A DNA stretch of 64,000 nucleotides from a bacterium (GCA_963674965.2 CAXXFL010000001.1:448001-512000); one strand, 5' to 3'; shown: positions 1,031 to 22,917, counted from the stretch's first letter. The notes: generated by a model not told the origin, from the sequence alone. Numbers and translations: made by a program.

Positions 1031-1136
1031 GCTGACTGATCTTTTCCGCCGGCCCCGGCGCGATTAATATAGCACGGCGATTAAGATACGGGAAGGAACC
1101 GGACGAGGTCGATAAGGCGCGTCCTGGATTGCCGAG

Positions 1137-3374
1137 TTACTTCGCCTTGGCCCGGGAGCAGGCTTTTCGTTCTCCCAGGTCGCAGGCCTTTTGGAAAAGC
1201 GACTTGGCCTTGTCCTTGTCCGCTTGCAATCCTCCCTGGCCCTCGAGGTAATATTCCGCGAGCCGGGCGCAGCCGAGGGGATGCTCGGCTTTGCAGGCTT
1301 TCTCGTAAAGCTCCCTGGCTTTTTGCCGGCTCTTCTCGAGGCCGAACAGTCCGTTTTCGTGCCATCTGGCCAAGCTTACGCAGGCTATCATGATCTTTCC
1401 GTCGCAGGCCGTCCTCATAAGCTCGACCGCCCGGGCCGGGTCTTTTTCCCCCGCCAGGTCGTCATAGAGGTAATAGGGAGCCAGATCGAAACAGGCGACA
1501 AGCTCGCCCGCGCCGCAGGATTTATCGAGCAGTTCGAAAGCCTTTTCCGGGTCTTTTTCCTGGCCGCACTCGCCCCTGGCCATGCATGACGCCAAGCCGT
1601 AGCATCCGGAGGGATTACCCGCGTCGCAGGCTTTCTTATAAAGCTCGGCGGCTTTTCTGGGATCGAGGTCGGCCCCGTCCTCCCCTTTCTCGTGCAGCCG
1701 GCCCAGATGAGCGCACGCGGTCATCGAGCCTTTTTCGCAAGACCGCTCGAAGAGGCCCCTGGCTTTTTCCAGGTCCTTATCGAGTCCGCCCGCTCCTCTT
1801 TCGATCAGAGTTCCCAGGCTGTAACATCCGTTCTCGTCGCCCGCGTCGCAGGTCTTGCGAAAGAGGGCGGCGGCCTTGAGAAGGTCCGCCTTGAACCCGC
1901 AGTCGCCGAACTTATAGCAATTGCCCAGGGCGTAGCATCCGGGCAGGTCTCCTCCCTCGCAGGCGCTCTTGAAATATTCGCCCCCCCTTTCCCGGTCCGT
2001 TTCCAGGCCGCAGTCACCGTTCCAGTAGCAGGCGCCAAGGGCGTGGCAGGCGAACATGCCTCCCTTTTGGCAGGTCTCGTCGAAAAGCTCGACGGCCTTT
2101 TGGGCGTCCTTATCAAGGCCGCACTCGCCGCTCATGTAACAGGCAGCCAAGGCCCCGCAGGCGGCGGGCTCTCCTCCCTCGCAGGCCCGCTGGTAATAAG
2201 GACCGGCGGCGTCCTCGTCCTTTTCCAGCCCGCATTCCCCTTGCCAAAGACATCGTCCGAAGTCGTAGCAGCCGGCGGGATATCCCTTTTCGCAAGCGCT
2301 CTTGAAATAATCGCCGAACTCTTCCCCGCCGCCGGCCCGGCATCCTCCGTCCCTCAGGCACGAGGCCAGGTTGTAGCATCCTCTCGCCGCGCCCCCCATA
2401 CAAGCTTTTTCCAAAAGCCTTCCCGCCTCGGCGGGGTCGGGGTCCCGGCCGCAGACGCCGGTGATATAGCAGGCTCCCAGGTTGTTGCACCCGGCCATGT
2501 TGCCGCCCGAGCAGGCCCGCTCGTGAAACTGGGCCGCCTTGACCGGATCGTTTTCCACGCCGCAGTCTCCGGACTCGTGACACTGGGCCAGGCTGAAACA
2601 GGCGTCCATCCTGCCGCCCTCGCAGGCCGCGAAAAGCAGCTCGCCCGCCCGCTTCGGGTCCCGGTCCATGCCGGCGGCCCCTTCCAAAAGAGCGTGAGCC
2701 AGTCTCTCGCAGGCCTCGAGGTCGCCGCCCTTACAGGCCTCGTCGTATATTTTTCCCGGGGACGGCGCGCCCTCGGGGGCCTCGCCGGAGAGGAAGGAGT
2801 CGGCCAGGCCGGTAAGACCCGAGCAGGCTCTCGCCACTCCCCCCAGACAGGACTCGGAATAGAACTCGTAGGCGAACTCCGGGTCGGCCTTTACTCCTCC
2901 GGTCCCTTTTTCGAAACGCCTCGCCAGGCTCGAAAGCTCGACGCAGGCAGCCGCGTACCCGTACTTGCATGAGCGGCGATAGTATTCGCCGGCGCGCTTG
3001 GGGTCGGGCGCTATCTTCTCGTCTCCATTCAGGAAAAGGCCGGCTATCTCGGCCAGCTTTTCGCAGTCGCCCAAGTCTTCCGACTGACAACCGACCGAAT
3101 ATTCCTCCGCCGCCAGCTTGGGATCGAGAAATACTTTTATGTAGCCAAGGGAATACAGATGAAATACCAGGGCCAGAAGAAGAAGAAAAGCGATTAAGAC
3201 GAGCGCGAAAATCCTGAAGGCGGTAGTGGCCCCCCTTGGTTTTTCGTCCACCAGGGGAATATCGTCGAGTCCCTTATCGAGACCCGCCGCCTGGCCCTCC
3301 GTGAAAGGAAGGTCGTATGGGTTTTTCTGCCCCTTCTCCTTGTCCACCTTAGAACCTCCGCCTCGGCGCGCCAC
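1137..3374 (-). CDS. Membrane-anchored Cys-rich Sel1-like repeat protein (Hcp-like)
   Basis: One TM helix near residues 55-80, then about 18 repeats of ~37 aa with D.KA...Y.KAC..G...GC..LG pattern. Confidence 0.9.
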   Translation of the reverse strand: MARRGGGSKVDKEKGQKNPYDLPFTEGQAAGLDKGLDDIPLVDEKPRGATTAFRIFALVLIAFLLLLALVFHLYSLGYIKVFLDPKLAAEEYSVGCQSEDLGDCEKLAEIAGLFLNGDEKIAPDPKRAGEYYRRSCKYGYAAACVELSSLARRFEKGTGGVKADPEFAYEFYSESCLGGVARACSGLTGLADSFLSGEAPEGAPSPGKIYDEACKGGDLEACERLAHALLEGAAGMDRDPKRAGELLFAACEGGRMDACFSLAQCHESGDCGVENDPVKAAQFHERACSGGNMAGCNNLGACYITGVCGRDPDPAEAGRLLEKACMGGAARGCYNLASCLRDGGCRAGGGEEFGDYFKSACEKGYPAGCYDFGRCLWQGECGLEKDEDAAGPYYQRACEGGEPAACGALAACYMSGECGLDKDAQKAVELFDETCQKGGMFACHALGACYWNGDCGLETDRERGGEYFKSACEGGDLPGCYALGNCYKFGDCGFKADLLKAAALFRKTCDAGDENGCYSLGTLIERGAGGLDKDLEKARGLFERSCEKGSMTACAHLGRLHEKGEDGADLDPRKAAELYKKACDAGNPSGCYGLASCMARGECGQEKDPEKAFELLDKSCGAGELVACFDLAPYYLYDDLAGEKDPARAVELMRTACDGKIMIACVSLARWHENGLFGLEKSRQKARELYEKACKAEHPLGCARLAEYYLEGQGGLQADKDKAKSLFQKACDLGERKACSRAKAK

Positions 3375-3459
3375 CTTCTATTTATTTTATACTTCTTTCA
3401 TCGAAGTTGAAAGCCCATTTTTCCGAGGCGATAAATCCGACAAAACTAAACGAACAAGG

Positions 3460-4536
3460 TCAATGCAGATATCCCCCATGAAAATCTTCCTCGTCGTCAT
3501 CGTCGTCCGGCTCGTCATCCTCCGCGGCGTACAGGCCAAGCCTTTGCCTGTCTTTCAGTCTCATGGCCTCTTCATTCTCCAGCTCGCGATAGCTCTTGCC
3601 CGCGTCTCCCAGCCAGGCATCTTCCCACTTTGCGTGCTTTTTCATTTTGCGGGCCTTCTTCCAGTAGGCGATTATGGCCAGGAGACCCAACAGGAACCAA
3701 AGGGCCCCGCCTCCTGAAATAACTGAAACCAGTCCGTAAGATTTTCTCATGTGCTGGGCCCACATATCCTGGAGCTCGGGCAGGGACTCGCCAAAAGACT
3801 CCTTCATGGCCCGGTCGGGGCTCGATCCCTTGGCCAGGAGGTCGAGGAAAGAGATGAAAGTCTCGGACCCGTACCTTACGTTCAGAAAGCGGACAAAGTC
3901 TCCCGATTGGGCGTAGGCCGTCGCGGCCGCGCTTCTCGCGTAGGGGAAGGAGTCTTCAAGGTCCCGGAAATCCATGAAGCGCCCGGAGATGGCCATCGAG
4001 CCAAGCGTGTCCACGCGCGAGAACAACGGCTCGTCCGCCATGAACACGGCCAGGCCCTCATCCAGCCAGACCGGCGGCCGAGCGTCACCCAGCTTGTGAT
4101 GAAGCGCGAGATGAGTCAACTCGTGGGCGACGATGGCCCGCATGGAAGAGTGCCTTACCTCGCTTCCAGACAATGGGCGCAGGTAAATGACGTTTCGGGC
4201 GGGATAGGCCGTGCCCGAGGACCAGGAAGGCACGGATCGATTCTGGATGGCCATGAAGGAATCCCGGTCGGGAGCGACTATTACGGTTATCGAGGAAGGA
4301 GGAGAAGTGGAAAGGGCGGCCGAAATCCGCTCGAGCTCGGGCGCCAGATGGGGGGATATGGAATCCACCAGCCCCTCCGACCCAGAAAGATACAGTATGG
4401 CAAACGGACCCCGCTTCAGGGTCAGCCATTTTTTATCAGGCTCTCTCGCCGACGACGTGAGTGGCAAAACGACTGATATGTAAAGAAAAATAACGATCAG
4501 GAACGATCGGGGCGATATCTTGGGCCAAGCGGTCAT
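3460..4536 (-). CDS. Peptidase MA-family (gluzincin-like) metallopeptidase, exported, C-terminal TM anchor
   Basis: Signal peptide; AHELTH zinc motif followed by PVWLDEGLA; AYAQS motif; C-terminal TM and acidic tail. Confidence 0.85.
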   Translation of the reverse strand: MTAWPKISPRSFLIVIFLYISVVLPLTSSAREPDKKWLTLKRGPFAILYLSGSEGLVDSISPHLAPELERISAALSTSPPSSITVIVAPDRDSFMAIQNRSVPSWSSGTAYPARNVIYLRPLSGSEVRHSSMRAIVAHELTHLALHHKLGDARPPVWLDEGLAVFMADEPLFSRVDTLGSMAISGRFMDFRDLEDSFPYARSAAATAYAQSGDFVRFLNVRYGSETFISFLDLLAKGSSPDRAMKESFGESLPELQDMWAQHMRKSYGLVSVISGGGALWFLLGLLAIIAYWKKARKMKKHAKWEDAWLGDAGKSYRELENEEAMRLKDRQRLGLYAAEDDEPDDDDDEEDFHGGYLH

Positions 4537-4832
4537 CTCTTAAGGATGTTAGCATGTCATCCTTTTCCTGGCAATTTGTCCAGACAGGAAATACCCGCAT
4601 TATGCATTCTTTAGATCGAATTTCAGCAGATTGCATTGCCTTTTAGGGTTCATAGCCCTTAATGGCGATCGGCCGTAAGGGCGTCTATAAATCCAGCGAA
4701 ATAACCCATGGCAACTTCTTCCTTGCAACGTCCTGCAATTAAAAGTATATTTTTTCCGGACTGTACTGTCCCTTCAACCGCGGACATTTTTCCGAACTTT
4801 TTCCAAACAAATACTGGAAGGCAAACAAAGAA

Positions 4833-4848
4833 TGGCCCATATTATGCA
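4833..4848 (+). promoter_or_regulatory. Putative sigma54 (-24/-12) promoter for the TonB-dependent receptor
   Basis: TGGCCCATATTATGCA fits GG-N10-GC; palindrome TTGCA-N6-TGCAA at 4723-4738 could be an upstream activator site. Confidence 0.45.
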
Positions 4849-5002
4849 TTATCTTGAAATGCTCTTGTCGCGTTTTATGGACATTGGGGTTTTCCAGTAA
4901 AACGCCGTAAAATGCCCAAGAGGAAGTAAAATATTATTATGGTTATTGTCGGTATTGACAAAAAGATTTTCAAAAACGAAAACCGAAAATAAGGAGACGG
5001 AC

Positions 5003-7078
5003 ATGATACTACTGAACCGTCGGCTCAAGTCTTTTCCCATCCTTACCATCCTGATCGCTTGTAGCTTTTTCTTCGCGGGCCAGTCCTTGGCTCTGGACGA
5101 TGAGGAACAATTCGAGGATTTCTCCGAGCTTGACCTCAACGACATGCTCGACGTGACGGTGGTTTCGGCCTCGAAGATCGAGCAGTCCCTCCGCGACTCG
5201 GCCAACGCCATTTACGTGATCACGGCCGAGGACATAAGGCGCTCGGGGGTCCGCTCGATACCCGAGGCCCTCCGCCTGGCTCCCGGGGTCTTCGTGGCCC
5301 AGATTTCCGGCAATAAGTGGGTCGTTACCATGGGAGGGTTCACGCTTTTCGAGTACTCGAACAAGCTGCTCGTGCTTATAGACGGGGTCTCGGTCTATAA
5401 CCCCATTTCGGGCGGCGTTGACTGGGACTTTCTGCCCGTGTCCCTCGAGGAAATCGACCGCATCGAGGTAATAAGGGGAACGGGCGGGGTACTGTACGGC
5501 GCCAACGCCGTCAACGGCGTTATCAACATCATCACCCGGTCAGGCGAGACGGAATCGGCGTCCTTCGTCAACGTGATGGCGGGCACGCAGAACATGCGCC
5601 AGATGCACGCCACCACCAGGCTCGAGTCCGAGGACGGCGCCCTTTCCAGCCGCGTTTCGGTTTCCTACGAGGAGGACGCCGGGCTTGGCCAGGCGCGGGG
5701 TACCCAGCAAGTATACGACGGCCAGGAGTTGGCCACGGCCTCCATCCGGAACACCGTCAAGCTCGACGACTCGGCCGAGGTCCATTTCGACGCCCGCTAT
5801 AAGGGCGGGATCATCCAAAGGCCGAACGTTGACGAAACCTGGAGAGGAGATGATTCCAAACTCGAGTCCGACATTATGAGGGGCCGCCTCGATTTATTTT
5901 TCGACAATGGGGCCCAGTTATACGTGCAGGGCTACCGCTGGATGGAAAACGTGCGGATCGACCGGGACGGCTATGAGACCTATTCGGCCCAGTTGGTCTA
6001 CGACGGCGAGGCCCAGGTCATGGTCCCCTTCGAATTGGCCGGGACGCATCAGTTCATCTTCGGCGGCGGCTACCGCGAGGTCTACGGCAAGAGCGAGGAC
6101 ATCCTGGATTTCGACCAGGACTTTACCGTGGGCAACGCCTACATGCATGACGCCTGGAAGCTTACCGACGAGCTCGCCCTCAACTCGGGCGTGAAATGGG
6201 AGCACGTGAACCTGGTCGACCCGACCTGGCAGTGGCGCGGGGCCCTGGTTTACAACCCCACCCCCCAGCATGGTATAAGGCTTTCCGTCTCGAACGCCTA
6301 CCGATCGCCCACGCTGACCGAAACCTATCACCAGGTCTTCTATGAAATTCCCGACGAGCTGGCCTTCCTTATCCCGGGCTGGCCCCCGGAACAGGACCAA
6401 TTCCTGGCCAGCGTGGTGGGCAACGAGGACCTCGAGCCCGAGCAGGTCGTGTCCTACGAGGCCGAGTATCGAGGCTTCTGGTTCAACCGGGTTAACTTCG
6501 ACGTGTCCTATTCCTACAGGGAATACACCAACCTCATCACCGTCTTTATAGCCGACCCCGGTTTCTACGTGGACCTGCCGCCCGTCATCGGGCCCCTCAG
6601 CCAGAATATCACCTACGTCAACGACGGCCAGGCCATAAGCAACAACGTGGAAGTGAGCATGGACGCCAAAGTGACCGACGAGCTCCGGGTCATGCTCAAC
6701 TACGCCCATATCGACATCCGGCTCACGGGGGACAAGGTTTTCAAGAACTACGAGGAAAACACCCCGAGGAACCTGGGAAGAGCGGCCGTCTCCTATACCC
6801 ATCCCAAGGGGTTCATGGTCGACGTCTCCGGCTCGTACATGGACGAGTACACGGTCCAGCCCGTCTCGCTGGCCACGTACGATTTCAACTCCTACTGGCG
6901 GATGGACGCCAGGATCGCCCAGAAAATCGAGCTTAACTCGGGCGACCTCGAGATAGGAGTGGTGGGCCAGAACCTCACCGAGGAATGGCACTCCGAGTAC
7001 CCAGACGTCGAGATCGACACCCAGCCTCTCCCCCTCAGAAGCGCTTTCTACGGGTACGTCGAGTTCAGGGACAAATAA
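5003..7078 (+). CDS. TonB-dependent outer-membrane receptor
   Basis: RBS AAGGAG then ATG 5003; signal peptide; plug motifs VVSASK, IYVITAEDIRRSG, LIDG, IDRIEVIRG, LYGANAVNGVINIIT; beta-barrel-type C-terminus. Confidence 0.93.
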   Translation: MILLNRRLKSFPILTILIACSFFFAGQSLALDDEEQFEDFSELDLNDMLDVTVVSASKIEQSLRDSANAIYVITAEDIRRSGVRSIPEALRLAPGVFVAQISGNKWVVTMGGFTLFEYSNKLLVLIDGVSVYNPISGGVDWDFLPVSLEEIDRIEVIRGTGGVLYGANAVNGVINIITRSGETESASFVNVMAGTQNMRQMHATTRLESEDGALSSRVSVSYEEDAGLGQARGTQQVYDGQELATASIRNTVKLDDSAEVHFDARYKGGIIQRPNVDETWRGDDSKLESDIMRGRLDLFFDNGAQLYVQGYRWMENVRIDRDGYETYSAQLVYDGEAQVMVPFELAGTHQFIFGGGYREVYGKSEDILDFDQDFTVGNAYMHDAWKLTDELALNSGVKWEHVNLVDPTWQWRGALVYNPTPQHGIRLSVSNAYRSPTLTETYHQVFYEIPDELAFLIPGWPPEQDQFLASVVGNEDLEPEQVVSYEAEYRGFWFNRVNFDVSYSYREYTNLITVFIADPGFYVDLPPVIGPLSQNITYVNDGQAISNNVEVSMDAKVTDELRVMLNYAHIDIRLTGDKVFKNYEENTPRNLGRAAVSYTHPKGFMVDVSGSYMDEYTVQPVSLATYDFNSYWRMDARIAQKIELNSGDLEIGVVGQNLTEEWHSEYPDVEIDTQPLPLRSAFYGYVEFRDK

Positions 7079-7105
7079 CCGGCGCTTGTATCCTTCACTC
7101 TTGAC

Positions 7106-7142
7106 GAGGCCGTCCGACGTTTGCCGGGCGGCCTCTTTTTTT
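7106..7142 (+). terminator. Rho-independent terminator
   Basis: GAGGCCGTCCG / CGGGCGGCCTC stem followed by T7. Confidence 0.8.
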
Positions 7143-7280
7143 CGCGCAAAGGACTTGGGACTTGATTCAATTTTGACAACTTCAGAACCATGGCCGAAAA
7201 TGCCGGGAGACGCGATATCCCGGCGACCCGTTATTATCGCGATCATTCAAACCCCTTCAACGTTAAAAGGAGAGCCTCCC

Positions 7281-10187
7281 TTGGACAGGAGACAATTTAT
7301 CAAGTCCACTTCCGCCGGAGCGGCCGGTCTGGCCTTCGGCGAAACGATTTTAGCGGCAAAAGACGATCATGGGCCGGGAGACTTCGTTCTGGCGGACCGC
7401 CTCGGGGTCGCGGACGTCCTCTTTGATCTTAACGACCACGAGGTGGTGGGCGTGGCCGCGACCGCGCTGGCCCGCGACGTGGAGAGCGTGACGGGGAAGA
7501 CGTGTTCTTTGAATGAAGGCTCCAGTCCAAATGCGGTCGTGGCCGGGACCATTGGAAAGAGCGAGTTGGTCGACGCTCTTATCCATGACGGCCGGCTGGA
7601 CGCGAGCGAGGTGGCGGGCCAATGGGAAAGCTGCCTCTTCTCCGTTGTAAAGAAACCCTTTCCCGGCGTGGATGAAGCGCTGGTCATCGCGGGCTCCGAC
7701 CGGCGGGGAACTGCCTTCGGAATTTTCGAGCTTAGCCGCCAAATCGGCGTGTCGCCCTGGATTTTCTGGGCCGACGCGGTCCCGGATAAACGCGAGGGAC
7801 TGGTTATTAAAGGAGGCTCGCGCCGCCTGGGTCCTCCGTCCGTAAAGTACCGAGGTATCTTCATCAACGACGAGGACTTCGGCTTGCAGCCCTGGTCGGC
7901 CAAGACCTTCGAGGCCGAGCTGGGAGACATAGGTCCCAAAACCTACGCCAGGGTATTCGAGCTGCTCCTACGCCTCAAGGCCAACCATATCTGGCCGGCC
8001 ATGCATAAATGCACCAAGGCCTTCAACTTCTACCCGGACAATAAAATCGTGGCCGACCGTTACGCCATCGTCATGGGTTCATCCCACTGCGAGCAGATGC
8101 TGAGGAACAACGTGAGCGAATGGAAACCAGACGGCAAAGGCCCCTATATATACCAGGTAAACCGGGAGGGCGTGCTCGACTACTGGGAGGAAAGAGTAAA
8201 GGAGAACGGGCGCTATGAAAACGTCTATACCCTGGGCATGCGCGGCCTCCACGACTCTCCCATGTTCGCCGTGGGATCGAGGAGGACCAAGATAAAGCTC
8301 TACGAAAAAATCATCGCCGACCAAAGAGATATCCTTCGCCGCGGAGTCGATCGGGACGTCTCGAGGGTCCCCCAGATTTTCTGCGCTTATAACGAGATGC
8401 TCGATTTTTACAGGGACGGCCTTCCCATCCCTGAGGACGCTACCATGATGTGGGTGGACGACAATCACGGCTATATCCGAGGTCTTTCCGGCCCTCTCGA
8501 GCAAGGCAGGGAGGGCGGCTCGGGGGTTTATTACCATATATCCTACTGGGGTCCGCCCTTCGATTATTTATGGCTCTGCTCGACTCCTCCCGCCCTGATC
8601 TGGGAGGAGATGAGAAAGGCCTACGCCCATGACGCCCGCCGGGTATGGATGCTGAACGTGGGAGATATCAAACCGGGTGAGCTAATGACCGAGTTCTTCC
8701 TCGATCTGGCCTGGGACGTCGATAAATGGGACCGTAAAAAACCCGCGGACTTCTTGCTGGAAGCCGCCGAGCGCGAGTTCGGACCCGACAAGGCCCGGGA
8801 AATCGCGGACGTTATGAACGAGTACTTCCGGCTGAACTTCCAGCGAAAGCCCGAGCATATGGGCTTCAACATGATCGGAGAGAAGGGTATCCCGGTCAAC
8901 GATCCCGAGTTTACGCCCTTCCATTACGGGGACGAGGCGCAAAAAAGAATCGACGCCTACGCCGACCTCGATAAAAGAGCAACCCTTGTATATGAGGAAT
9001 TGCCCGAGCATAAGCGCGCCTCATTTTATCAACTCGTGCTCTACCCCGTTCGCGGGTCATCCCTTCTTAACTCCATGACGCTTAACGCCTACAAGAGCAG
9101 AATATACGCGGCCCAGGGCAGGAAAAGCGCAAAGGATTACGCTATAAAATCCAGGGAAGCGCATAAAGGACTCCGGGAGGAAGACGCTTATTACAACGAG
9201 GTACTTTCAAAGGGAAAATGGAAATACATGATGTGCCATCACCCCAAGGACCTTTCAGTCTTCGATCAGCCCAAAACGGCAAAAGCCAGGCTTAAAACGG
9301 GACCGGCTCTTGGAATATTCATCGAGGGCATGGAGAACGGACGCGGCGTTTCAGGCGGGGAGCTGCCGGAGTTCAACGCCCTTACCCGGCGAAAGTATTT
9401 CATCGACGTCTTCAACCGCGGAGACCGGCCCCTCGAGTGGAGGGCATATCCATCGGAGGAATGGATACTCCTGGACAAGGACCATGGAACGGCCGACGGA
9501 GAAGAAAGGATTTGGGTCGATATCGATTACGGCCAGGCGCCGAAAGGCGAGGCCCTGGCCGCGAGCGTGGAAATAAAAGGCGCCGACGATTCCCGGCTCG
9601 TGAAAATCACCGCTTATAACCCGGCCTACGCCGGGACGGCCGGGACCCTTTTCGTGGAGGACAACAAAGTGGTGGCCATGGACGCTGGAAGCGGTCTTAC
9701 AGGTCGTACCGGCAACCGCGGTTCCCGCTGGGAATCGATACGCGGTCTTGGCCGCAGCGGCAAGGCCATAGCCCTGCTTCCTCTCGATTCTCCCACTTTA
9801 AAGGACAATGAAATATCAGACGCGGCCCTGGCCGAGTATCCGGTCCGAGTGATTACCGGCGGCGAGGCAAGGCTGATCTTCGAGGTGCTTCCCACTTATC
9901 CGATCCATGAGGGGCGGGAGTTGGCCCTGGCTTTTTCATTTGACGATCTAGGACCTCGTAAAATCAATCTCGAAAAAAAGGGACGTACTCTTCTGGGTTT
10001 CTATTGGGGCGAGGACGTGCTCGCGGGCTATTTCCAGTCTTCCACTCAAGTAAATCTTGCCAAGGGCGATCACTCCCTCAAGTTATGGGGGCTTGACCCG
10101 AGCGTGGTTGTGGACAGGATTGTCATCGACTTTGGAGGACTGAAGAAGTCGTGCCTCGGACCGCCGGAGACTATCGCCCGCGTATAG
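7281..10187 (+). CDS. Glycoside hydrolase family 115 (xylan alpha-1,2-glucuronidase-like) with Tat signal
   Basis: RBS AGGAG, TTG start; Tat signal DRRQFIK; GH115 motifs GSDRRGTAFG, YRGIFINDE, LLRLKANHIWPAMH, MGSSHCEQM, GMRGLHD, NVGDIKP. Confidence 0.9.
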   Translation: MDRRQFIKSTSAGAAGLAFGETILAAKDDHGPGDFVLADRLGVADVLFDLNDHEVVGVAATALARDVESVTGKTCSLNEGSSPNAVVAGTIGKSELVDALIHDGRLDASEVAGQWESCLFSVVKKPFPGVDEALVIAGSDRRGTAFGIFELSRQIGVSPWIFWADAVPDKREGLVIKGGSRRLGPPSVKYRGIFINDEDFGLQPWSAKTFEAELGDIGPKTYARVFELLLRLKANHIWPAMHKCTKAFNFYPDNKIVADRYAIVMGSSHCEQMLRNNVSEWKPDGKGPYIYQVNREGVLDYWEERVKENGRYENVYTLGMRGLHDSPMFAVGSRRTKIKLYEKIIADQRDILRRGVDRDVSRVPQIFCAYNEMLDFYRDGLPIPEDATMMWVDDNHGYIRGLSGPLEQGREGGSGVYYHISYWGPPFDYLWLCSTPPALIWEEMRKAYAHDARRVWMLNVGDIKPGELMTEFFLDLAWDVDKWDRKKPADFLLEAAEREFGPDKAREIADVMNEYFRLNFQRKPEHMGFNMIGEKGIPVNDPEFTPFHYGDEAQKRIDAYADLDKRATLVYEELPEHKRASFYQLVLYPVRGSSLLNSMTLNAYKSRIYAAQGRKSAKDYAIKSREAHKGLREEDAYYNEVLSKGKWKYMMCHHPKDLSVFDQPKTAKARLKTGPALGIFIEGMENGRGVSGGELPEFNALTRRKYFIDVFNRGDRPLEWRAYPSEEWILLDKDHGTADGEERIWVDIDYGQAPKGEALAASVEIKGADDSRLVKITAYNPAYAGTAGTLFVEDNKVVAMDAGSGLTGRTGNRGSRWESIRGLGRSGKAIALLPLDSPTLKDNEISDAALAEYPVRVITGGEARLIFEVLPTYPIHEGRELALAFSFDDLGPRKINLEKKGRTLLGFYWGEDVLAGYFQSSTQVNLAKGDHSLKLWGLDPSVVVDRIVIDFGGLKKSCLGPPETIARV

Positions 10188-15558: not shown

Positions 15559-15695
15559 TATCGGGTTTGTTTGGTTAAGTGTTTGATAGACAAAGCGAAA
15601 TTAAAGCTCCCTGATTTGGGAACTTTTTTTATTATAAAGCATCTTAAATAGCTGTGAGGTAAACTATAAGATGCGACGTTATGAGGAGTAGTAAA

Positions 15696-15884
15696 ATGGC
15701 AAAGCGTAGAAAGAAAAAGAAAACTAAAAGGGTTTGCCTTCGTTGCGACAGAGAGTTCATGAGCGACGGAATCTATAACCGGATTTGCCCCAACTGCCGG
15801 GAATCCAACGCTAATATAGCTCTGTATCCTTACGACTCCGTCCACGATTACCCGTCGGGCGATATTGTAAGCAAGCGCGACTGA
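15696..15884 (+). CDS. Small basic zinc-finger protein (62 aa)
   Basis: RBS GAGGAG; AKRRKKKKTKR then CLRC-x13-CPNC. Confidence 0.75.
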   Translation: MAKRRKKKKTKRVCLRCDREFMSDGIYNRICPNCRESNANIALYPYDSVHDYPSGDIVSKRD

Positions 15885-16041: not shown

Positions 16042-16119
16042 GGTAACTCGTATCCTTCTTGGGCTTCTCAGATTATTTAACGCATGACATGTCGCATTGG
16101 TTGTGGTATTTGCTTTTTA

Positions 16120-16341
16120 ATGCGAATATCATCTTCAAAGATTCGCGAGCGGGCGCTTGGCGCCTATCAAACTGGCGATTACACCCAATTGGAGGTCGCC
16201 GCCATATTCAAAGTCAGCACTCGTTACTTTCAACGCTGGCTCAGGCGGTACCATAGTCATGGTTCGACCGAACAGAGTAAACGCGGCCACCGCGTCGCCG
16301 TTTATCGGGCGCCTGGTTTTTCTCGGCGAGTCCGGCGCTAA
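16120..16341 (+). pseudogene. IS630-family transposase N-terminal HTH remnant
   Basis: IRERALGAYQTGDYTQLEVAAIFKVSTRYFQRWLRRYHSHGS resembles the IS630 HTH; no DDE domain follows. Confidence 0.65.
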
Positions 16342-16374
16342 AACCAGCATAAGTCGCCACTGGGGGCGGGGACG

Positions 16375-16525
16375 AACAGCGTTGAAGCGGCCAAGTCTCT
16401 CTTGGAAGGTGGAGCGGACGTTAGCGCCATGAACTAGGACAATTCATCACCCCCTTGCGGTAGCCAAAAAATACGATAAGACGCAGATGGCGGCTTTCCT
16501 TTTTGAGAAAGGCGGCGTGGAATCA
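16375..16525 (+). pseudogene. Ankyrin-repeat gene remnant
   Basis: Manual translation NSVEAAKSLLEGGADVSAMN*DNSSP / LAVAKKYDKTQMAAFLFEKGG with in-frame TAG (16435-16437) and a frameshift. Confidence 0.6.
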
Positions 16526-16719
16526 AGCCTTCATTCGAGTGGCGGCCATTCAACAGGCATGGTATCCGCTCGGATTTTAATTATTTTTCTGGCGCCGCCC
16601 GCATTTCCTTTATGTTGATGAGCGGTTAAACCGGGCCCGGTTTTACCGATGAAGAGCTCCCCAGAAAACCCTTATGGCGTCCCTATTTTAAAAAAATTAG
16701 AAAAGTTAATATTTTTTTC

Positions 16720-16758
16720 TTGACAAACCTAATCAATTGATTTAATCTTATGATTAAA
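16720..16758 (+). promoter_or_regulatory. Promoter with tandem palindromic operators (likely TetR autorepression)
   Basis: TTGACA at 16720; AATCAATTGATT (16731-16742) and TTTAATCTTATGATTAAA (16741-16758), both AATC-N4-GATT. Confidence 0.65.
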
Positions 16759-16780
16759 GTGATTGATCAAAAGGGCGGAT

Positions 16781-17464
16781 ATGCAAGAAAATATAATTAA
16801 AATCGACCATGTACCGGTTAGAAGACTCGAAACCGCTATACACGATCCCTCCTCACCGCCGGGCAGAATCCTTCAGGCCGCCGAGGATATCTTCGCCGAT
16901 GAGGGGTACAAGGCGGCCACTACAAGGGCCATCGCCAAAAAAGCGGGCGTCAATATCGCCACCATCCACTACTATTGGGGCTCAAAGGACGAGCTTTGGT
17001 ACGCGGTCATTTATAACGTGATTACTCGGATCACGCGGCTGACCGAGGGGATTTTGGAACCCAGGACCGAGACCGAAGACCCTCGCGCCCTCATCCGGCA
17101 CATCATCGGCAAGCTGGTGGATATTTTCGCCGACAATCCCAACTACGCCCGTCTTCTTCAGCACCGCACCCTGGAGGGCGTCAGCCCCGAGGTGGCCGAG
17201 GAGATATCTTTGCCCCTCCTGAATATCGGCCTTAAATTCATCAAGCAGCGGAACATAAAGGGATACGCGGAGAATATCGACCCCTCCATGATGCTTTTCA
17301 GCCTCCAGGGGGCGCTTAGAATTTTTTTTCACGAGAAGGACTCGGTCAAGGCCATATTCGGGGAAGACCCAGCGTCCTTTTCCGACGGTTTCAGGCAAAG
17401 GCTAAAGGACCTGATCTCGTCTTTGGCCATTCATTACGCGGGACTTGACGGTAATAAGGGGTAG
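16781..17464 (+). CDS. TetR/AcrR family transcriptional regulator
   Basis: RILQAAEDIFADEGYKAATTRAIAKKAGVNIATIHYYWGSKDEL HTH. Confidence 0.93.
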   Translation: MQENIIKIDHVPVRRLETAIHDPSSPPGRILQAAEDIFADEGYKAATTRAIAKKAGVNIATIHYYWGSKDELWYAVIYNVITRITRLTEGILEPRTETEDPRALIRHIIGKLVDIFADNPNYARLLQHRTLEGVSPEVAEEISLPLLNIGLKFIKQRNIKGYAENIDPSMMLFSLQGALRIFFHEKDSVKAIFGEDPASFSDGFRQRLKDLISSLAIHYAGLDGNKG

Positions 17465-17582
17465 TGGGGGAGTCGCCGCCCAGGCGGCCTAACATCGTCA
17501 TCTTTGCATGAACGGGAAGATTTTCCGGATCGGCTGTATCGTTCGCGCGGACTCGTGATTGCAAAAAGCGGGAGGATTTTCC

Positions 17583-18056
17583 GTGGGATCGATACCGACG
17601 GCAAACGTCGCGGCCGTTTTGCACCTGGCCTTCGTGTCCGCCCTTATCGGCGTGATCGCGGCGGAGACGGTAATGGAGGCGCTTCCACTTCGCCAGAGAG
17701 ACCTCCACCAGGGCGCGGTCCGGTTCCATCTATGGATCGGCCTCTTGCTCGAGGTACCCATCGCCATGGGCGTGGTCGTAACGGGAATAGCCATGGCCAC
17801 GCTGGTCGACTCCTTTTCCCTTTTCCACGTCGTGAAAATTTCCCTGGCTTCCATCGCCCTTCTTCTCGGTCTCACCTGCGTCTTCCGGGTCATCAGAAGA
17901 TACCGGCTATGGGACGACGGGGCCATGGACGACGTCCTCGAGAAGGACACGCGAAAAATCCATCTGACCGCCGCGTTTATTTACGCGCTCATGATCGGGC
18001 CGGCGATATTGGGGGTTTGGCTCGCCTATAAGCGGGTCGCCGAGTTCTACGGATAA
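17583..18056 (+). CDS. Hypothetical 4-TM membrane protein
   Basis: RBS GGGAGG then GTG 17583; four hydrophobic segments with several His residues. Confidence 0.75.
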   Translation: MGSIPTANVAAVLHLAFVSALIGVIAAETVMEALPLRQRDLHQGAVRFHLWIGLLLEVPIAMGVVVTGIAMATLVDSFSLFHVVKISLASIALLLGLTCVFRVIRRYRLWDDGAMDDVLEKDTRKIHLTAAFIYALMIGPAILGVWLAYKRVAEFYG

Positions 18057-18089
18057 AGGAAAGAAATAATAAGGGTCAATGGGGGGATA

Positions 18090-19703
18090 ATGAAAATGAG
18101 CGCAAACGGAAAAAAACGCGCGGCCGTTTCGGAAAAATCGAAGCTTTACCTGGTGGGAGGCGGGATAGCGGGTCTGTCCGCCGCGGTGTTCGCCATTCGG
18201 GACGCGGGGATCAAAGGCGAAAACATCCATCTTTTCGAGTCGCTCGATTTATTGGGCGGCGCCCTCGAGGGTCACGTGCGGCCCGACAAGGTCTGCGTTA
18301 CGCGGGGGGACTGGAAGTTCAACAAGGAGGCCTACCAGTGCGTATGGGACGTGTTCTCGACCATACCGTCTCTTACGATCCCGGGCAAATCGGTGACGCA
18401 GGAAATACTCGATCATAACGAGCGGCACAAGAAAAACGCGAGGTCGCGGCTGATCGACAAGGACCGCAACGTGGACCACGTGGAAAGCATGGGTCTTACG
18501 CTGGGTCAGAAACTTCTATTCCTGCGGCTCCTGTTTATCCCCGAGGAGAAAATCGAGAACAGAAGGATCGACTCCTGGTTCGATCCTCCCTTCTTCGAGA
18601 CCAATTTCTGGAAGGTCTTCAGTTCCATGTTCGCCATCGAGCATTGGAACGACCTGGTCGAGATGAAGAGGTACATGAGGCGTTTCATGCACGATTTCGA
18701 CAAGATGAGCAAGGGCAGGGGAGAGGTGGTCACGCCCAACCATAACCACGACACCATGATCCGTCCCATGGTCAAGTGGCTCGAGGAGCGGAGCGTCAAT
18801 TTCCATACGGGATGCAAGGTATTGGACATGGACCTTAAGCCCGGCGGCCGCGATATTACGGTTGAAAAAATTCATTACGTTCAACGCGGAGAGAACAAGG
18901 AGATAGCTCTCGGGGAAGGAGACTTCGTTTTCGTGACCAACGGCTCGATGACGGCCGACTCGAGGAGCGGCTCGATGACCGAGCCTCCCGAGCTCGAGAC
19001 CCGCAAGGTTGACGGCTCCTGGACCTTGTGGGAGAACCTGGCGAGGAAAAAGCCCGGCCTGGGCAATCCTTCCGTTTTCAACGACAGGATTGACGAGTCC
19101 AAATGGATAACCTTCGTGGTCACGGCCACGGACCCGATATTCCTCGAGAAGTACGAGGAGTTCACGGGCAACAAGCCGGGTCAGGCGGACATGGTGACCT
19201 TTCGGGACTCGAGCTGGCATATCTCGGTGCTGGTCATGCACCAGCCTCATTTCCTCGAGCAGCCTGAGGGGACTTATTTCTGGGGAGGGTGCGGCCTCAT
19301 TCCCGACAAGCCGGGTGATTTCGTGAACATCGAGATGACCGAGTGCAACGGCCGGGACCTCCTGACCGAGGTGTGCCACCATTTCGGGTTCGTGGACGAG
19401 CTGCCGCGCATTCTCGAGACCTCGACCGTCGTTCCAAATATGATGCCCTACGAGATGAGCCATTTCCTCCCCCACAAGAGAAGCGACCGGCCCAAGGTGG
19501 CGCCGGATGGTTCGACCAACCTGGCCTTCATGGGCCAGTTCGTGGAGAGCGAAGAGTGCGTCATGCTGGTCGAGTCGTCGGTACGGACCGCCAAGATGGC
19601 GGTATACGACCTGATGGGAATCGCCAAGGAAATCCCGGCGCCTTACACGGCCATCAAGGACCCGGTGGTCTGGGCCAAGGTTTTGAAAACCTTGTTCAAA
19701 TAA
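18090..19703 (+). CDS. Oleate hydratase (MCRA) family FAD protein, divergent
   Basis: GGGIAGLSAA FAD motif, LLGGALEG, TIPSL, FFETNFW, EMKRY, TNGSMT, DSSW, HQPHF, NLAFMGQFVE, SSVRTA. Confidence 0.88.
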   Translation: MKMSANGKKRAAVSEKSKLYLVGGGIAGLSAAVFAIRDAGIKGENIHLFESLDLLGGALEGHVRPDKVCVTRGDWKFNKEAYQCVWDVFSTIPSLTIPGKSVTQEILDHNERHKKNARSRLIDKDRNVDHVESMGLTLGQKLLFLRLLFIPEEKIENRRIDSWFDPPFFETNFWKVFSSMFAIEHWNDLVEMKRYMRRFMHDFDKMSKGRGEVVTPNHNHDTMIRPMVKWLEERSVNFHTGCKVLDMDLKPGGRDITVEKIHYVQRGENKEIALGEGDFVFVTNGSMTADSRSGSMTEPPELETRKVDGSWTLWENLARKKPGLGNPSVFNDRIDESKWITFVVTATDPIFLEKYEEFTGNKPGQADMVTFRDSSWHISVLVMHQPHFLEQPEGTYFWGGCGLIPDKPGDFVNIEMTECNGRDLLTEVCHHFGFVDELPRILETSTVVPNMMPYEMSHFLPHKRSDRPKVAPDGSTNLAFMGQFVESEECVMLVESSVRTAKMAVYDLMGIAKEIPAPYTAIKDPVVWAKVLKTLFK

Positions 19704-19749
19704 AACCATCTTATTTTCATGGAGAAGACGATCGCAAGGAGGCGTAATC

Positions 19750-21030
19750 ATGGAATATCTGGCGAAACTGTTAGACGAGTTTTCCGACACCCCGCGCAAC
19801 ATCATCCTTCACGCCGACCTTCTTCGGCGCGGCATCAAGAGGACCCCGGACCTTATGGACGCGGGCGAGAACACCTGTATCACGGGGATATCGACCAAGC
19901 TTCAGTCCTTTATGGGGGACGCGAAGCCCATTCCCAGCATGCTCCATTTCAAGGAGGACGAGGTCTCGGTGGATATCAAGACCGACGACAGGAGCCCCTA
20001 TGAAATCAAGAAGAACGGCAACGGCGGTTACGCGCTCTATTGCGGTGACGAGAACTTCGGTGAGGTAAGGTTTACCAAGCGTCCATCTTACACGGACAAG
20101 CTCACCTCGGACGGGCAGTCCTGCGCGGCCCTGCTTCTACAGAGGGGCCCCTTTTGCATTATGGTCAACCCCCTGGAGTTCTGCGCCTATTACAAGAACA
20201 AGGAAGCATGCAAGTACTGCGTCCTTTCCCTGGCCATGGAGATGGGAGTAAACGCCAAGCTGATGAAGCCGGTGCCGGACCCTGAGATGATCGCCGAGGC
20301 GCTCGAGATGGCGACCATGGATATCAATCTCAAGGACCTTAAAATATGCGGCGGCGCGCTTTACGATACCAAAAAGGAGGCCGTTCATTACAAGAAGTGC
20401 CTCGAGGCGATCCTTAACCGGATCGAGAAGCCCGAGGAGATCACCATATTTTCACAAGCCTTCGACGAGGGGGACACGAGGGACCTGAAAGAGCTGGGAG
20501 CCACCAACATCCTGTTCAACATGGAAGTATGGAACGAGGGGATGTGGCCGGAGTTGTTGCCGGGGAAGGCCAAAGCCATTGGCAGGCAGGAGTGGATCGA
20601 CCGCTTGACCAAGGCGGTGGACATTTTTGGACGAGGTCACGTGGGAAGCGGGTTCGTGGGCGGGTTCGAGTGCGCTCCCCGCCCGGGGTTCCTTTCCAGG
20701 GAAGAGGCGTTCAAGTCTTACCTCGAGGCCTTCGAGTACCTGATCGAGAGGGACGTCGTGCCCTGGTTTACCGTGTGGACGGCCGCGCCCATCGTGGGCG
20801 GCTTCAGCGTCGACGACCCTCCCCCCACCGACTTTTATTTGCGTCTGGGCCAGGAGCTTCACGAGCTTCTTGACAAGTATGGGATGTACAAGGACCTTGG
20901 TTTTCCCACCATGGGCGTAAACCCCCCGACCCTGGGACTTTATTGCTACTACTGTTTCAGTATGACCTTCAATCGCGATTACCCGAGGCTGATCGGGCGT
21001 ACTCCCCGGCCTTCCCAGAGCGCGGAATGA
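19750..21030 (+). CDS. Radical SAM protein with extended CX8CX2C motif (MSMEG_0568/COG2516-like)
   Basis: RBS AAGGAGG; FCAYYKNKEACKYC; CGG; FNMEVWN...PGK; C-terminal YCYYC. Confidence 0.85.
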   Translation: MEYLAKLLDEFSDTPRNIILHADLLRRGIKRTPDLMDAGENTCITGISTKLQSFMGDAKPIPSMLHFKEDEVSVDIKTDDRSPYEIKKNGNGGYALYCGDENFGEVRFTKRPSYTDKLTSDGQSCAALLLQRGPFCIMVNPLEFCAYYKNKEACKYCVLSLAMEMGVNAKLMKPVPDPEMIAEALEMATMDINLKDLKICGGALYDTKKEAVHYKKCLEAILNRIEKPEEITIFSQAFDEGDTRDLKELGATNILFNMEVWNEGMWPELLPGKAKAIGRQEWIDRLTKAVDIFGRGHVGSGFVGGFECAPRPGFLSREEAFKSYLEAFEYLIERDVVPWFTVWTAAPIVGGFSVDDPPPTDFYLRLGQELHELLDKYGMYKDLGFPTMGVNPPTLGLYCYYCFSMTFNRDYPRLIGRTPRPSQSAE

Positions 21031-21047
21031 TATCGAGGTGAGCGGCT

Positions 21048-21686
21048 ATGAAGCTTGCGGGAAAAAAACGAGTTTGCACGGCGCTGGCCATCATCTGGCT
21101 TTCGGCCTCGGCCGTCGCGAGCAAGACGGAAAAGCCCGGGATCGATCTCTCTCCCGAGGACCTTAAGGTCCTCGAGGAGGGGAAGCTGGTCACCAAGGTG
21201 GATGAATACAAGGACGATAAGGGAAACGTCAATCATCGCATGGGTAATTACCTCATCATCGACGTCCCGCCCAAGGAGGTTTGGAAAGTCCTGACCGAGC
21301 CGGAGAAGGACCATGAATGGATATCGGGAGTAAAAAAGAGCGAGGTGCTAAAAAGGGATGACGACTCCTGTGACGTGCACTACGAGGTGTCAATTATTTT
21401 CATGGATTTCCAGTTTAATATCCACAGGCGCTTCCAAGATCAAGACCTTTATATTAAAAACGACCTCATCGAGGAAATGGAAAACGACCTCGAGGTGGCC
21501 GACTCCTACTATGCCCTATATCCGCACGCCAACGGCGAGAAGACGATCATGAAATATTCCCTCCGCCTGGTGGTAAGCGAGGGTATACCCAAGTCGGTCG
21601 AGGATTGGTTCGTGAAGCAAAGCGGGAAGGGATGGATGCAGAACCTTAAAAAACGGGCTGAAAGTAAGGGGACCTGGAAAAAATGA
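21048..21686 (+). CDS. Exported SRPBCC/START-domain protein
   Basis: Signal peptide; IDVPPKEVWKVLTEPEKDHEWISGVKKSEVL; C-terminal helix WMQNLKKRAE. Confidence 0.8.
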   Translation: MKLAGKKRVCTALAIIWLSASAVASKTEKPGIDLSPEDLKVLEEGKLVTKVDEYKDDKGNVNHRMGNYLIIDVPPKEVWKVLTEPEKDHEWISGVKKSEVLKRDDDSCDVHYEVSIIFMDFQFNIHRRFQDQDLYIKNDLIEEMENDLEVADSYYALYPHANGEKTIMKYSLRLVVSEGIPKSVEDWFVKQSGKGWMQNLKKRAESKGTWKK

Positions 21687-21705
21687 GGCCTATCTTCGAG
21701 GCCCT

Positions 21706-22917
21706 TTAGGCCCCGCCGCATTGTTTATCGAACTCCTCGATGATCTTCTCGGCGTAGGCCGACCTCGTGCGGCCGCGGACGAATTTGTTGGCGTTTTTCC
21801 TGAGGCCTTCATAAAGATCGGCGTTTTCGGTCACTTTCTTCAGAGCTCCGGCCATTTCGGCGACGTTATCGGATGAAATTAGCACGCCCGTTTTTCCGTC
21901 TTCTATCATTTGAGGCACGCCGCCAACCCTGGTGGCGATTACGGGTATGCCCCTCGCCATGGCCTCGAAAATAACCTTGGGCGTTCCCTCGGAGCGGGAA
22001 GGATGCACGAAAACGTCGGCCCAGTCGTATTGGGCGACGATCTCCGGCCCGAAGGGTACGCCGCCGGTAAATTCCACCGAGTCACCCAATCCCAAGTCTT
22101 TAGCCTTTTTCTGGAGCGACTCCTTGAGGTGGCCCCATCCTACTATCCTGGCCTCCCATTTCAACTCTGACTCATCCTTGAGCCGCGCCAGCGCCTCGAG
22201 AAGCACGTTATGTCCCTTCTCATTGGACAACCTGCCCACGGCCAGCACCCGGGCGGTCTCACGCGGAGCCGGTTTTTCGGGAAATACTATGTTTTCATCG
22301 TCGATGCTGGTGGCGAAAATAGCGTTGGCCCTATCGGTGTATCGCGACAGTCGGCCGGTGATGGATTGTCCATGGCAGAAAAGAAGATTGTTCTTTACCG
22401 CTTTCTTTTCCATGGCCAAATAGAACATGAAAAAAATCCGACGGATGGGATTGATGAAAGGTCTCAGCAAAGGCCCCTTTGAGGACCCCAGTTTAGCCTC
22501 GACTTCCCAGTCTCCCACCACCGTGTGAAATGACGGAACGCCCAGCTCACTCGCTTGCAAGGCCGCGAATACCCCAACCAGATCAGGATAGCGGGGGTTT
22601 ACAACGTCCCATCTGCCCATGTTTTGCCTGATCCTCCACCATATTACCGGGTACATAATCGTGAGTGACAAAAAAGACACGTAAAAGGGAAGTTCAATAA
22701 CATGGAATTTCTTAGAGTCGATATGAACCGCGGCGTCAATCTTGTTCCTTCTCGTTACGGGAACGCAAAGCTCGATTTTATCGAAGTAGCGGGTCATTGA
22801 CTCGATATATTTCATAAAGGCGCCGTTAGTGGCGTATCCATCCGCGTTCTTTACGAACTTCTTGCCGCAGATGACGCCCAGTACCCCTCTTTTTTTTTGT
22901 CCGCTCGTTTCCGACAT
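21706..22917 (-). CDS. Glycosyltransferase family 4
   Basis: VGRLSNEKG, DVFVHPSRSEGTPKVIFEAMARGIPVIATRVGG. Confidence 0.92.
   Translation of the reverse strand: MSETSGQKKRGVLGVICGKKFVKNADGYATNGAFMKYIESMTRYFDKIELCVPVTRRNKIDAAVHIDSKKFHVIELPFYVSFLSLTIMYPVIWWRIRQNMGRWDVVNPRYPDLVGVFAALQASELGVPSFHTVVGDWEVEAKLGSSKGPLLRPFINPIRRIFFMFYLAMEKKAVKNNLLFCHGQSITGRLSRYTDRANAIFATSIDDENIVFPEKPAPRETARVLAVGRLSNEKGHNVLLEALARLKDESELKWEARIVGWGHLKESLQKKAKDLGLGDSVEFTGGVPFGPEIVAQYDWADVFVHPSRSEGTPKVIFEAMARGIPVIATRVGGVPQMIEDGKTGVLISSDNVAEMAGALKKVTENADLYEGLRKNANKFVRGRTRSAYAEKIIEEFDKQCGGA

Follow-up and report, generated by a model that had tools for sequence, protein, structure and literature searches.

Which genes define the five-gene cluster found in the genome of a candidate bacterial phylum, and on what kind of compound might it act? 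The cluster lies on the + strand (16763–21686) of the 64-kb stretch of DNA analysed here (CAXXFL010000001.1:448001-512000; the window), which comes from genome G000, one of 13 species genomes of the phylum in our collection. It encodes a TetR-family regulator, a small membrane protein, a flavoprotein of the MCRA/oleate hydratase (OhyA) family, a radical S-adenosylmethionine (rSAM) enzyme and a START-like protein (Table 1), and is predicted from its sequence to be an operon under TetR control. A first-pass annotation had read the locus as a lipid-modification system distinguished by the pairing of an OhyA-fold protein with an rSAM enzyme. We find that OhyA and rSAM are not supported as a defining pair. 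The best reading of gene content across related genomes is that the evolutionary core consists of the TetR regulator and a variant rSAM enzyme with a Cx8Cx2C cysteine triad, from an uncharacterized subfamily of NF045502. In the candidate phylum, genes for a CopD/DUF2269-like membrane protein and a START protein that is predicted to be exported accompany this putative core, and the OhyA-like gene is, judged by its distribution, a facultative add-on that is separable from the rSAM core. The locus is best filed as a TetR-controlled hydrophobic-substrate operon with radical enzymes, not as a demonstrated lipid-modification system.

Table 1. Positions of the predicted operon and its regulatory features, counted from the first letter of the window
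Feature	Position	Strand	Basis or conservation
-35-like hexamer TTGACA of predicted promoter	16720–16725	+	Unchanged in window, G007 and G012
Palindrome 1, AATCAATTGATT, candidate TetR operator	16731–16742	.	Half-sites kept in G007 and G012
Palindrome 2, AATCTTATGATT, candidate TetR operator	16744–16755	.	Kept as AATCTTTTGATT in G007 and G012
TetR-family regulator	ORF 16763–17464 (233 aa, opens TTG 16763); likely 16781–17464	+	PF00440
Four-helix membrane protein	ORF 17559–18056 (165 aa, opens TTG 17559); likely 17584–18056	+	CopD/DUF2269-clan matches of relatives
MCRA/oleate-hydratase-family flavoprotein	18090–19703 (537 aa)	+	PF06100
Variant rSAM enzyme, Cx8Cx2C	19750–21030 (426 aa)	+	NF045502
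Predicted exported SRPBCC/START-like protein	21048–21686 (212 aa)	+	PF03364
Stem-loop between START gene and convergent glycosyltransferase gene, operon end	21686–21704	.	Terminator-like call, - strand

The co-orientation, tight spacing and ribosome-binding-site-like sequences noted in the first-pass annotation are all borne out by the coordinates of the open reading frames (ORFs): spacers of 33, 46 and 17 bp separate the last four, and GGGGGA, AAGGAGG and GAGGTGA stand ahead of the ATG codons of the last three genes. Alignment with relatives places the likely start of the TetR protein at ATG 16781 and not at TTG 16763. For the membrane protein, the likely start is GTG 17584, which has GGGAGGA upstream; its relatives begin with MGSIP.

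The promoter with two AATC-N4-GATT palindromes also held up. The AATCNNNNGATT pattern has exactly two matches in the window, both in this promoter, although the count itself is not above chance (1.49 expected; at least two in 43 of 100 shuffles). The operator signal instead derives from the palindromes adjoining each other within the promoter and being kept in G007 and G012, where the flanking DNA diverges; between the three genomes that share the site, the operon proteins are 65–78% identical. A simple promoter scan gave no call at the TTGACA site. The arrangement fits a TetR operator pair. Both palindromes are situated after TTGACA and ahead of the start codon of a gene whose product has an N-terminal helix–turn–helix (HTH; PF00440 TetR_N, 58.7 bits, E 4.9e-16). 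Orthologues of this regulator in G007, G012 and L008 are 65–71% identical. Its NCBIfam matches fall far under their cut-offs and include RutR, PsrA, FadR, FasR and KstR, and its solved relatives are generic TetR structures only.

The rSAM enzyme matches the NF045502 variant_rSAM model at 200.3 bits (cut-off 125), with residues 17–376 aligned to positions 4–357 of 357. The earlier label 'MSMEG_0568-like' is wrong at the family level, with a score of 66.2 bits against TIGR04043 (cut-off 303.7); both proteins fall under the NF045502 model, but the subfamily found in the window forms a separate branch. We take the MSMEG_0568 enzyme to be part of the nitrilase-linked Nit1C cluster. One NF045502 locus (L022) has GNAT and AIR-synthase-like neighbours, presumably as in Nit1C, whereas the window operon contains no nitrilase, GNAT or AIRS gene. 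A limited literature collection returned nothing on MSMEG_0568.

PF04055 was not matched by the rSAM protein at E 0.01, and the canonical CX3CX2C motif is absent. In its place is a Cx8Cx2C triad (C145, C154 and C157), a spacing expected for a 'variant_rSAM' of NF045502, and none of the three cysteines varies among the 23 sequences aligned, which span 25–100% identity. Aligned members with at least 45% identity also share Cys136 and a C-terminal CxxC; a wider search lists 73 relatives at or above that identity. The AlphaFold2 (AF2) model (pLDDT 91.7) adopts the radical-SAM (beta/alpha) barrel, and a Foldseek search of the Protein Data Bank (PDB) gave 132 matches at E ≤0.001, the listed top of which are nearly all radical-SAM enzymes, headed by ThiH, LipA, HydE, MoaA and BioB. 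For BioB, LipA, HydE and ThiH, the Foldseek E values range from 1e-7 to 2e-5, with target-normalized TM scores of 0.43–0.62 over about 250 residues, and the family profile matches biotin synthase 8VDW (E 1.8e-6). Identity to these four enzymes is 12–20%, and the triad is Cx8Cx2C and not CX3CX2C. The window enzyme also has about 130 additional residues that form an N-terminal domain, and its C-terminal CxxC is the subfamily's own. The sulfur-donor or substrate logic of the four enzymes is not transferable. An atlas search returned only unnamed radical-SAM clusters.

A role for the enzyme as a glycyl-radical activase is not supported. The operon contains no pyruvate formate-lyase (PFL)-like glycyl-radical enzyme, canonical activases are encoded elsewhere in G000 (C5, C6 and C7), and the only NF045502 protein that neighbours a glycyl-radical enzyme is a 22%-identical paralogue in G005. 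That paralogue belongs to a cluster in the same bacterial family (L045, G005:C74:8000-17916, approximately 850–9900; also L030, in G004), which encodes two URO-D-like proteins, a B12-binding protein, a TetR regulator, the NF045502 rSAM enzyme (model score 286 bits), a PFL-like glycyl-radical enzyme of 879 aa, a START-like protein of 219 aa and an SBF transporter. The rSAM gene stands there at the position expected for an activase, and the contig also encodes, at a distance of about 10 kb, a canonical activase and a second glycyl-radical enzyme.

The subfamily of the window enzyme occurs in 3 of the 13 phylum genomes (G000, G007 and G012); a second small phylum, represented by 11 genomes, has it in 3, at 46–48% identity. 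Its context could be read in seven lineages, two of them from metagenome contigs; L006 and L007, with alignment figures identical to those of the G012 locus, were counted with G012. The window order, TetR–membrane protein–OhyA–rSAM–START, recurs in G007, which represents a second genus. G012 has TetR–DUF2378-like–membrane protein–rSAM–START; L008 has TetR–membrane protein–rSAM–DUF2378-like–thiolase–nitroreductase/ferredoxin–two acyl-CoA dehydrogenases; and L009 has GntR/FCD–rSAM–START–EamA. G406 and G407 carry a TetR–rSAM pair convergent with a 2-hydroxyacyl-CoA-dehydratase system, and the G401 gene is at a contig end. Across the seven lineages, the neighbours of the rSAM gene are TetR in five, the membrane protein in four, START in four, a DUF2378-like gene in two and OhyA in two.

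The TetR–rSAM pairs of G406 and G407 (L074, G406:C237, 6128–11868; L073, G407:C177) encode an rSAM enzyme 44–47% identical to that of the window. The convergent system consists of two HGD-D subunits and a BcrAD/BadFG activator ATPase, and a URO-D-like gene lies upstream. In G002, a membrane-protein orthologue (57–59% identical) occurs near lexA (L044, G002:C319, 192–2669), and a START orthologue followed by an EamA transporter opens another contig (L048, G002:C196, 17–1551). L009 and G002 have START proteins that are 100% identical, and it is probably the G002 assembly, not the organism, that lacks the rSAM gene of this lineage.

The neighbourhood of OhyA and rSAM, on which the first-pass annotation built, has a mixed outcome: the genes are adjacent in G000 and G007, but in only two of the seven lineages, and each is found without the other. 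In G012, the OhyA orthologue (68% identical) and the rSAM gene are on different contigs. The same OhyA subclade is present in G009 (67%), G022 (59%) and G343 (60%), none of which has a match to NF045502; the G022 gene stands beside a TetR gene, an SDR/3-beta-HSD-like gene and a thioesterase. Conversely, none of five genomes searched (G401, G406, G407, G002 and G251; completeness 92–98%) contains an MCRA gene, and G401, G406 and G407 have the rSAM subfamily. Three more contigs (12024, 3997 and 5767 bp) probably hold both genes, as contigs of equal size and from the same source appear among the top matches of both protein lists. OhyA appears to be a resident gene of the order that moved between the membrane-protein and rSAM genes in one family, in two genera. 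The statement that no characterized pathway pairs the two enzymes stands within a limited literature collection, in which we found none.

The OhyA-like protein is itself more than a divergent protein of OhyA fold, as it had been described. It is a strong, full-length MCRA member (PF06100, E 9.7e-167; residues 17–506 on profile positions 2–495 of 495) that narrowly misses the oleate-hydratase equivalog NF010584 (556.4 bits, cut-off 567), and it matches solved structures 4IA5 (355.8 bits), 4UIR (347.2) and 5ODO (278.5). Its catalytic loop is changed. Residues 72–77 read RGDWKF and align with RGGREM in 4IA5, 4UIR, 9IQA and 7KAV and with RGGRAM in the E82A mutant 7KAX; neither RGGREM nor the active variant RGGRML is present. 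In Staphylococcus aureus OhyA, Glu82 is critical for activity and Arg81 acts as a gatekeeper, according to PMC7948970; the corresponding residues in the window protein are Lys76 and Trp75. D74, K76 and F77 are invariant in four orthologues from the phylum. The conserved Tyr (Em Y241/Sa Y201) is retained, with KRYMRRF aligned to KLYMHRF of 4UIR, and the N-terminal FAD motif has one deviating position relative to the pattern given in PMC7306040.

In comparison with the hydratases of S. aureus (7KAV), Lactobacillus acidophilus (4IA5) and Elizabethkingia meningoseptica (4UIR), the window protein shares full-length PF06100, the GxGxxG FAD region and the Tyr, but has RGDWKF for RGGREM and a shorter C terminus (537 aa versus 591–646 aa). 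HFam1 and HFam3 hydratases with RGGRML (Rhodococcus erythropolis, 5ODO) likewise lack the catalytic Glu and are likewise short. These keep Gly-Gly-Arg and, according to PMC7306040, are demonstrated hydratases, whereas the Gly-Asp-Trp/Arg-Lys subclade of the window is known from sequence. Loss of the Glu is by itself compatible with hydratase activity, because RGGRML enzymes are reported there as active, but the Asp-Trp/Arg-Lys combination was seen in none of the solved or assayed hydratases compared.

We surveyed the loop in the best 120 listed of 2077 homologues with E ≤1e-50. Lys takes the place of Glu82 in 68 of them, Met in 43 and Leu in 3; Glu itself is found in 1, and 5 fragments lack the loop. 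The conserved Tyr is present in 115 of these 120, and the 42 that carry RGGRM are no more than about 48% identical to the window protein. Loop type follows identity to that protein, with RGD(W/R)K at or above about 57%, RGARK at about 46–61% and RGGRM at or below about 48%. The sources named for Lys-loop sequences include Actinomycetota, Smithella and Syntrophaceae metagenome-assembled genomes. This Lys-loop branch is large and seems to be unstudied.

The membrane protein matches no Pfam or NCBIfam family, and Pfam gives 0 families even at E 10. An exhaustive HMMER search of 1.84 billion proteins found 139 representatives of its family at E ≤0.001. In a 40-sequence alignment, H22, E36, E40, H57, E65, P67, G76, R114 and G152 are invariant, and some of the aligned relatives match DUF2269 (8 of 40, best E 9.7e-7), CopD (5 of 40) or DUF2214 (2 of 40). 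Feature-based look-alikes, which serve as leads only, are the same CopD/DUF2269-type families, and one such cluster, again a lead only, is named for HemJ-type protoporphyrinogen oxidase (score 0.90). The AF2 model (pLDDT 94) has four long helices and gave no Foldseek match in the PDB at E ≤0.001. We rejected a fold assignment from the wide VIA search, which returned nothing but four-helix bundles of designed or generic type (top Z 16); the scores for cytochrome b561 (Z 11.7) and for superoxide oxidase (Z 10.8) were below the level that is trusted for helical bundles. From these alignments and the model, the protein looks like a distant integral relative of the CopD/DUF2269 clan. Four long helices are common to it and to the clan (DUF2269, CopD, DUF2214 and HemJ/UPF0093), but it has no Pfam match of its own and its H22/E36/E40/H57/E65 pattern is peculiar to its family. 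A distant similarity of DUF2269 to DUF989 is mentioned in the literature. Complex prediction for the rSAM enzyme with the membrane protein (score 0.00, mark 0.32) is evidence neither for nor against an interaction.

The START-like call is confirmed by PF03364 Polyketide_cyc over its gathering score (32.6 bits, cut-off 23.4; E 1.1e-7), although as a partial domain (residues 71–145). No solved relative was found (best E 0.1). Alignment shows a hydrophobic, signal-peptide-like N terminus in all four orthologues, and the protein is predicted to be a Sec-exported ligand-binding protein. Orthologues follow the rSAM gene in G007, G012 and L009. Between the two OhyA-bearing loci, START identity is 65%, against 39–44% with the START proteins of OhyA-less loci, whereas the rSAM enzyme has no such split (78% between the window and G012, 74.6% between the window and G007). 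These identities hint that START sequence is tied to the presence of OhyA.

START-like and DUF2378-like proteins also occur away from the operon: outside the window, at G000:C7:832057-840516, one gene of each kind shares about 9 kb with the genes for a canonical glycyl-radical activase and a glycyl-radical enzyme. Because both kinds accompany glycyl-radical loci, they seem to be accessories of general use in this organism that bind hydrophobic substrates. G000 has five glycyl-radical-enzyme genes and three canonical activases, which points to an anaerobic host.

How might these parts work together? Our preferred interpretation, to which we give about an even chance, is an inducible module that acts on a hydrophobic compound independently of oxygen and to which a hydration step can be added. 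Binding of such a compound, probably fatty-acyl-like, would release TetR from the two operators; the exported START protein would carry the compound or its product in the periplasm; and the cytoplasmic rSAM enzyme would carry out an oxygen-independent C–H functionalization of the compound. The membrane protein might either provide the place of action or serve as an electron, redox or metal partner. Where present, the OhyA-like enzyme could add a C=C hydration or isomerization step within the same stimulon. An acyl or hydrophobic theme is visible in the beta-oxidation genes of L008, in the START domain and in the weak TetR matches, which include PsrA, FadR, FasR and KstR. Of the lipid-modification module first proposed, the operon, the conserved TetR-type operator and the G007 gene order stand; the lipid, sterol or terpenoid substrate is still something that we infer. 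A more specific scheme is a way to functionalize an unactivated alkyl chain anaerobically at the membrane: the rSAM enzyme and a metal- or haem-binding membrane protein would remove hydrogen from a saturated lipid or hydrocarbon chain and desaturate it or activate it in some other way, the Lys-loop OhyA, in lineages that have recruited it, would hydrate the double bond so formed and START would shuttle the substrate or product. This scheme seems to us highly improbable.

Several observations weigh against the hydrophobic-substrate interpretation. NF045502 is present in 50 of 401 sampled genomes, and a tblastn search around 27 sampled loci outside the subfamily found neither OhyA nor START nor the membrane protein encoded within about 1.5 kb; a Pfam scan of 106 ORFs from these loci found 0 MCRA and 0 Polyketide_cyc domains. 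Their contexts (polyprenyl synthase, ThiF/JAB, GNAT/AIRS, sulfatase and 2-hydroxyacid dehydrogenase/ABC-2) are so mixed that membership of NF045502 predicts no substrate. In the second phylum, TetR alone travels with the rSAM gene, and G000, G007 and G012 show no synteny on either side of the cassette. A search of sequencing runs for the stretch listed three entries, all from one study and stored as contigs, and no RNA run. START-like genes occur in 13 of 13 phylum genomes, with four copies in G000, and DUF2378-like genes are also multi-copy (eight in G000, one of which matches DUF2378 weakly, E 3e-4), such that the presence of either may be generic and not specific. The co-variation of START and OhyA is only a hint because it compares two loci with three, in related genomes. 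Finally, each part belongs, by sequence, to an uncharacterized branch of a known superfamily; as the rSAM subfamily, the membrane family and the OhyA subclade are all uncharacterized, each chemical step is a guess.

Three other explanations account for parts of the same evidence. OhyA and the rSAM enzyme could be obligate partners that combine hydration or isomerization with radical chemistry on one unsaturated lipid, sterol or terpenoid. The position of OhyA inside the operon, with spacers of 33 and 46 bp, the same order in a second genus (G007), the three further contigs that probably carry both genes, the co-variation of START with OhyA and the altered RGDWKF loop would all suit such a partnership. 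We nevertheless regard it as unlikely, given that OhyA adjoins rSAM in two of seven lineages only, that the rSAM subfamily occurs without any MCRA gene in G401, G406 and G407, that G009, G022 and G343 have the OhyA subclade (59–67%) and no NF045502 match, and that the two G012 genes are on different contigs. Nor is the loop particular to rSAM-linked genes: it is altered throughout the subclade, linked or not, and Lys occupies the Glu82 position in 68 of the 120 listed homologues. A second possibility is that the OhyA-like gene encodes an ordinary stand-alone fatty-acid hydratase, for detoxification or use of unsaturated fatty acids, and is a passenger under the TetR promoter with chemistry unrelated to that of its neighbours. 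Strong MCRA membership, a near-intact FAD motif (read against the published pattern), the retained Tyr and the activity of Met-for-Glu enzymes (PMC7306040) are consistent with this, and the G022 gene, with its TetR, SDR/3-beta-HSD-like and thioesterase neighbours, is in a classic hydroxy-fatty-acid context. Tight spacing within the operon has, however, been retained in two genera, Asp-Trp-Lys replaces Gly-Arg-Glu in a combination seen in no solved or assayed hydratase of the set compared, and the equivalog cut-off is narrowly missed; on balance, we consider a stand-alone hydratase improbable.

The rSAM enzyme could alternatively be a maturase, either building a cofactor or metal site for the CopD/HemJ-like membrane protein or activating another protein. 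BioB, LipA, HydE and ThiH, its nearest folds, are cofactor-building enzymes, the membrane protein has an invariant H/E/E/H/E set and a HemJ-type look-alike (a lead only), and its gene adjoins that of the rSAM enzyme in four of seven lineages; for activation, there is the G005:C74 order of TetR, NF045502 rSAM enzyme, PFL-like glycyl-radical enzyme, START-like protein and SBF. Yet in G002 the membrane-protein orthologue adjoins lexA, apart from START, and the second phylum has the rSAM enzyme without the membrane protein. Identity to the G005 paralogue is a mere 22%, the genomes concerned have canonical activases of their own and the window operon has no glycyl-radical enzyme. We judge a maturase very unlikely and retain, as the preferred interpretation, a TetR-controlled module for a hydrophobic compound to which hydration is optional.

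Beyond the stem-loop lies a convergent glycosyltransferase gene (21706–22917, - strand); a scan for intrinsic terminators inside the operon was uninformative, with 9 sites against 6.4 ± 2.3 in shuffles, all inside coding sequence. On the 5' side, the first-pass annotation had placed IS630/ankyrin debris. An 85-aa ORF (16084–16341) has sub-threshold matches to transposase HTH domains (IS481, 6e-4; IS630, 2.3e-3), too weak for a firm IS630 assignment, and the ankyrin-repeat-like tail that follows across frames to 16545 was read by eye only. Just 5' of the promoter, 16084–16545 looks like degraded mobile or repeat DNA. Between purF and this transposase fragment is a 67-aa + strand ORF (15681–15884) with two CxxC pairs (zinc-ribbon-like), which matched no Pfam family. 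We rejected a mobile cassette and make no claim of recent transfer, because the flanks differ among G000, G007 and G012, the GC content is unremarkable and the transposase fragment is weak.

The locus brings together three uncharacterized branches: an rSAM subfamily with a Cx8Cx2C triad, a four-helix membrane-protein family of small size whose His/Glu set is invariant and a sizeable Lys-loop subclade of MCRA. The unit to study is TetR, rSAM enzyme, membrane protein and START, for which OhyA provides a natural with/without variable, and the conserved operator is a handle for an inducer search. If lipids are what the operon modifies in the absence of oxygen, anaerobic lipid or hydrocarbon chemistry would gain a radical route, and the chemistry known for oleate-hydratase-like enzymes, which are of biocatalytic interest, would be widened. 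Were the desaturate-then-hydrate scheme true, it would amount to anaerobic hydroxylation and would give a first function to both the RGD(W/R)K subclade of MCRA and this branch of NF045502.

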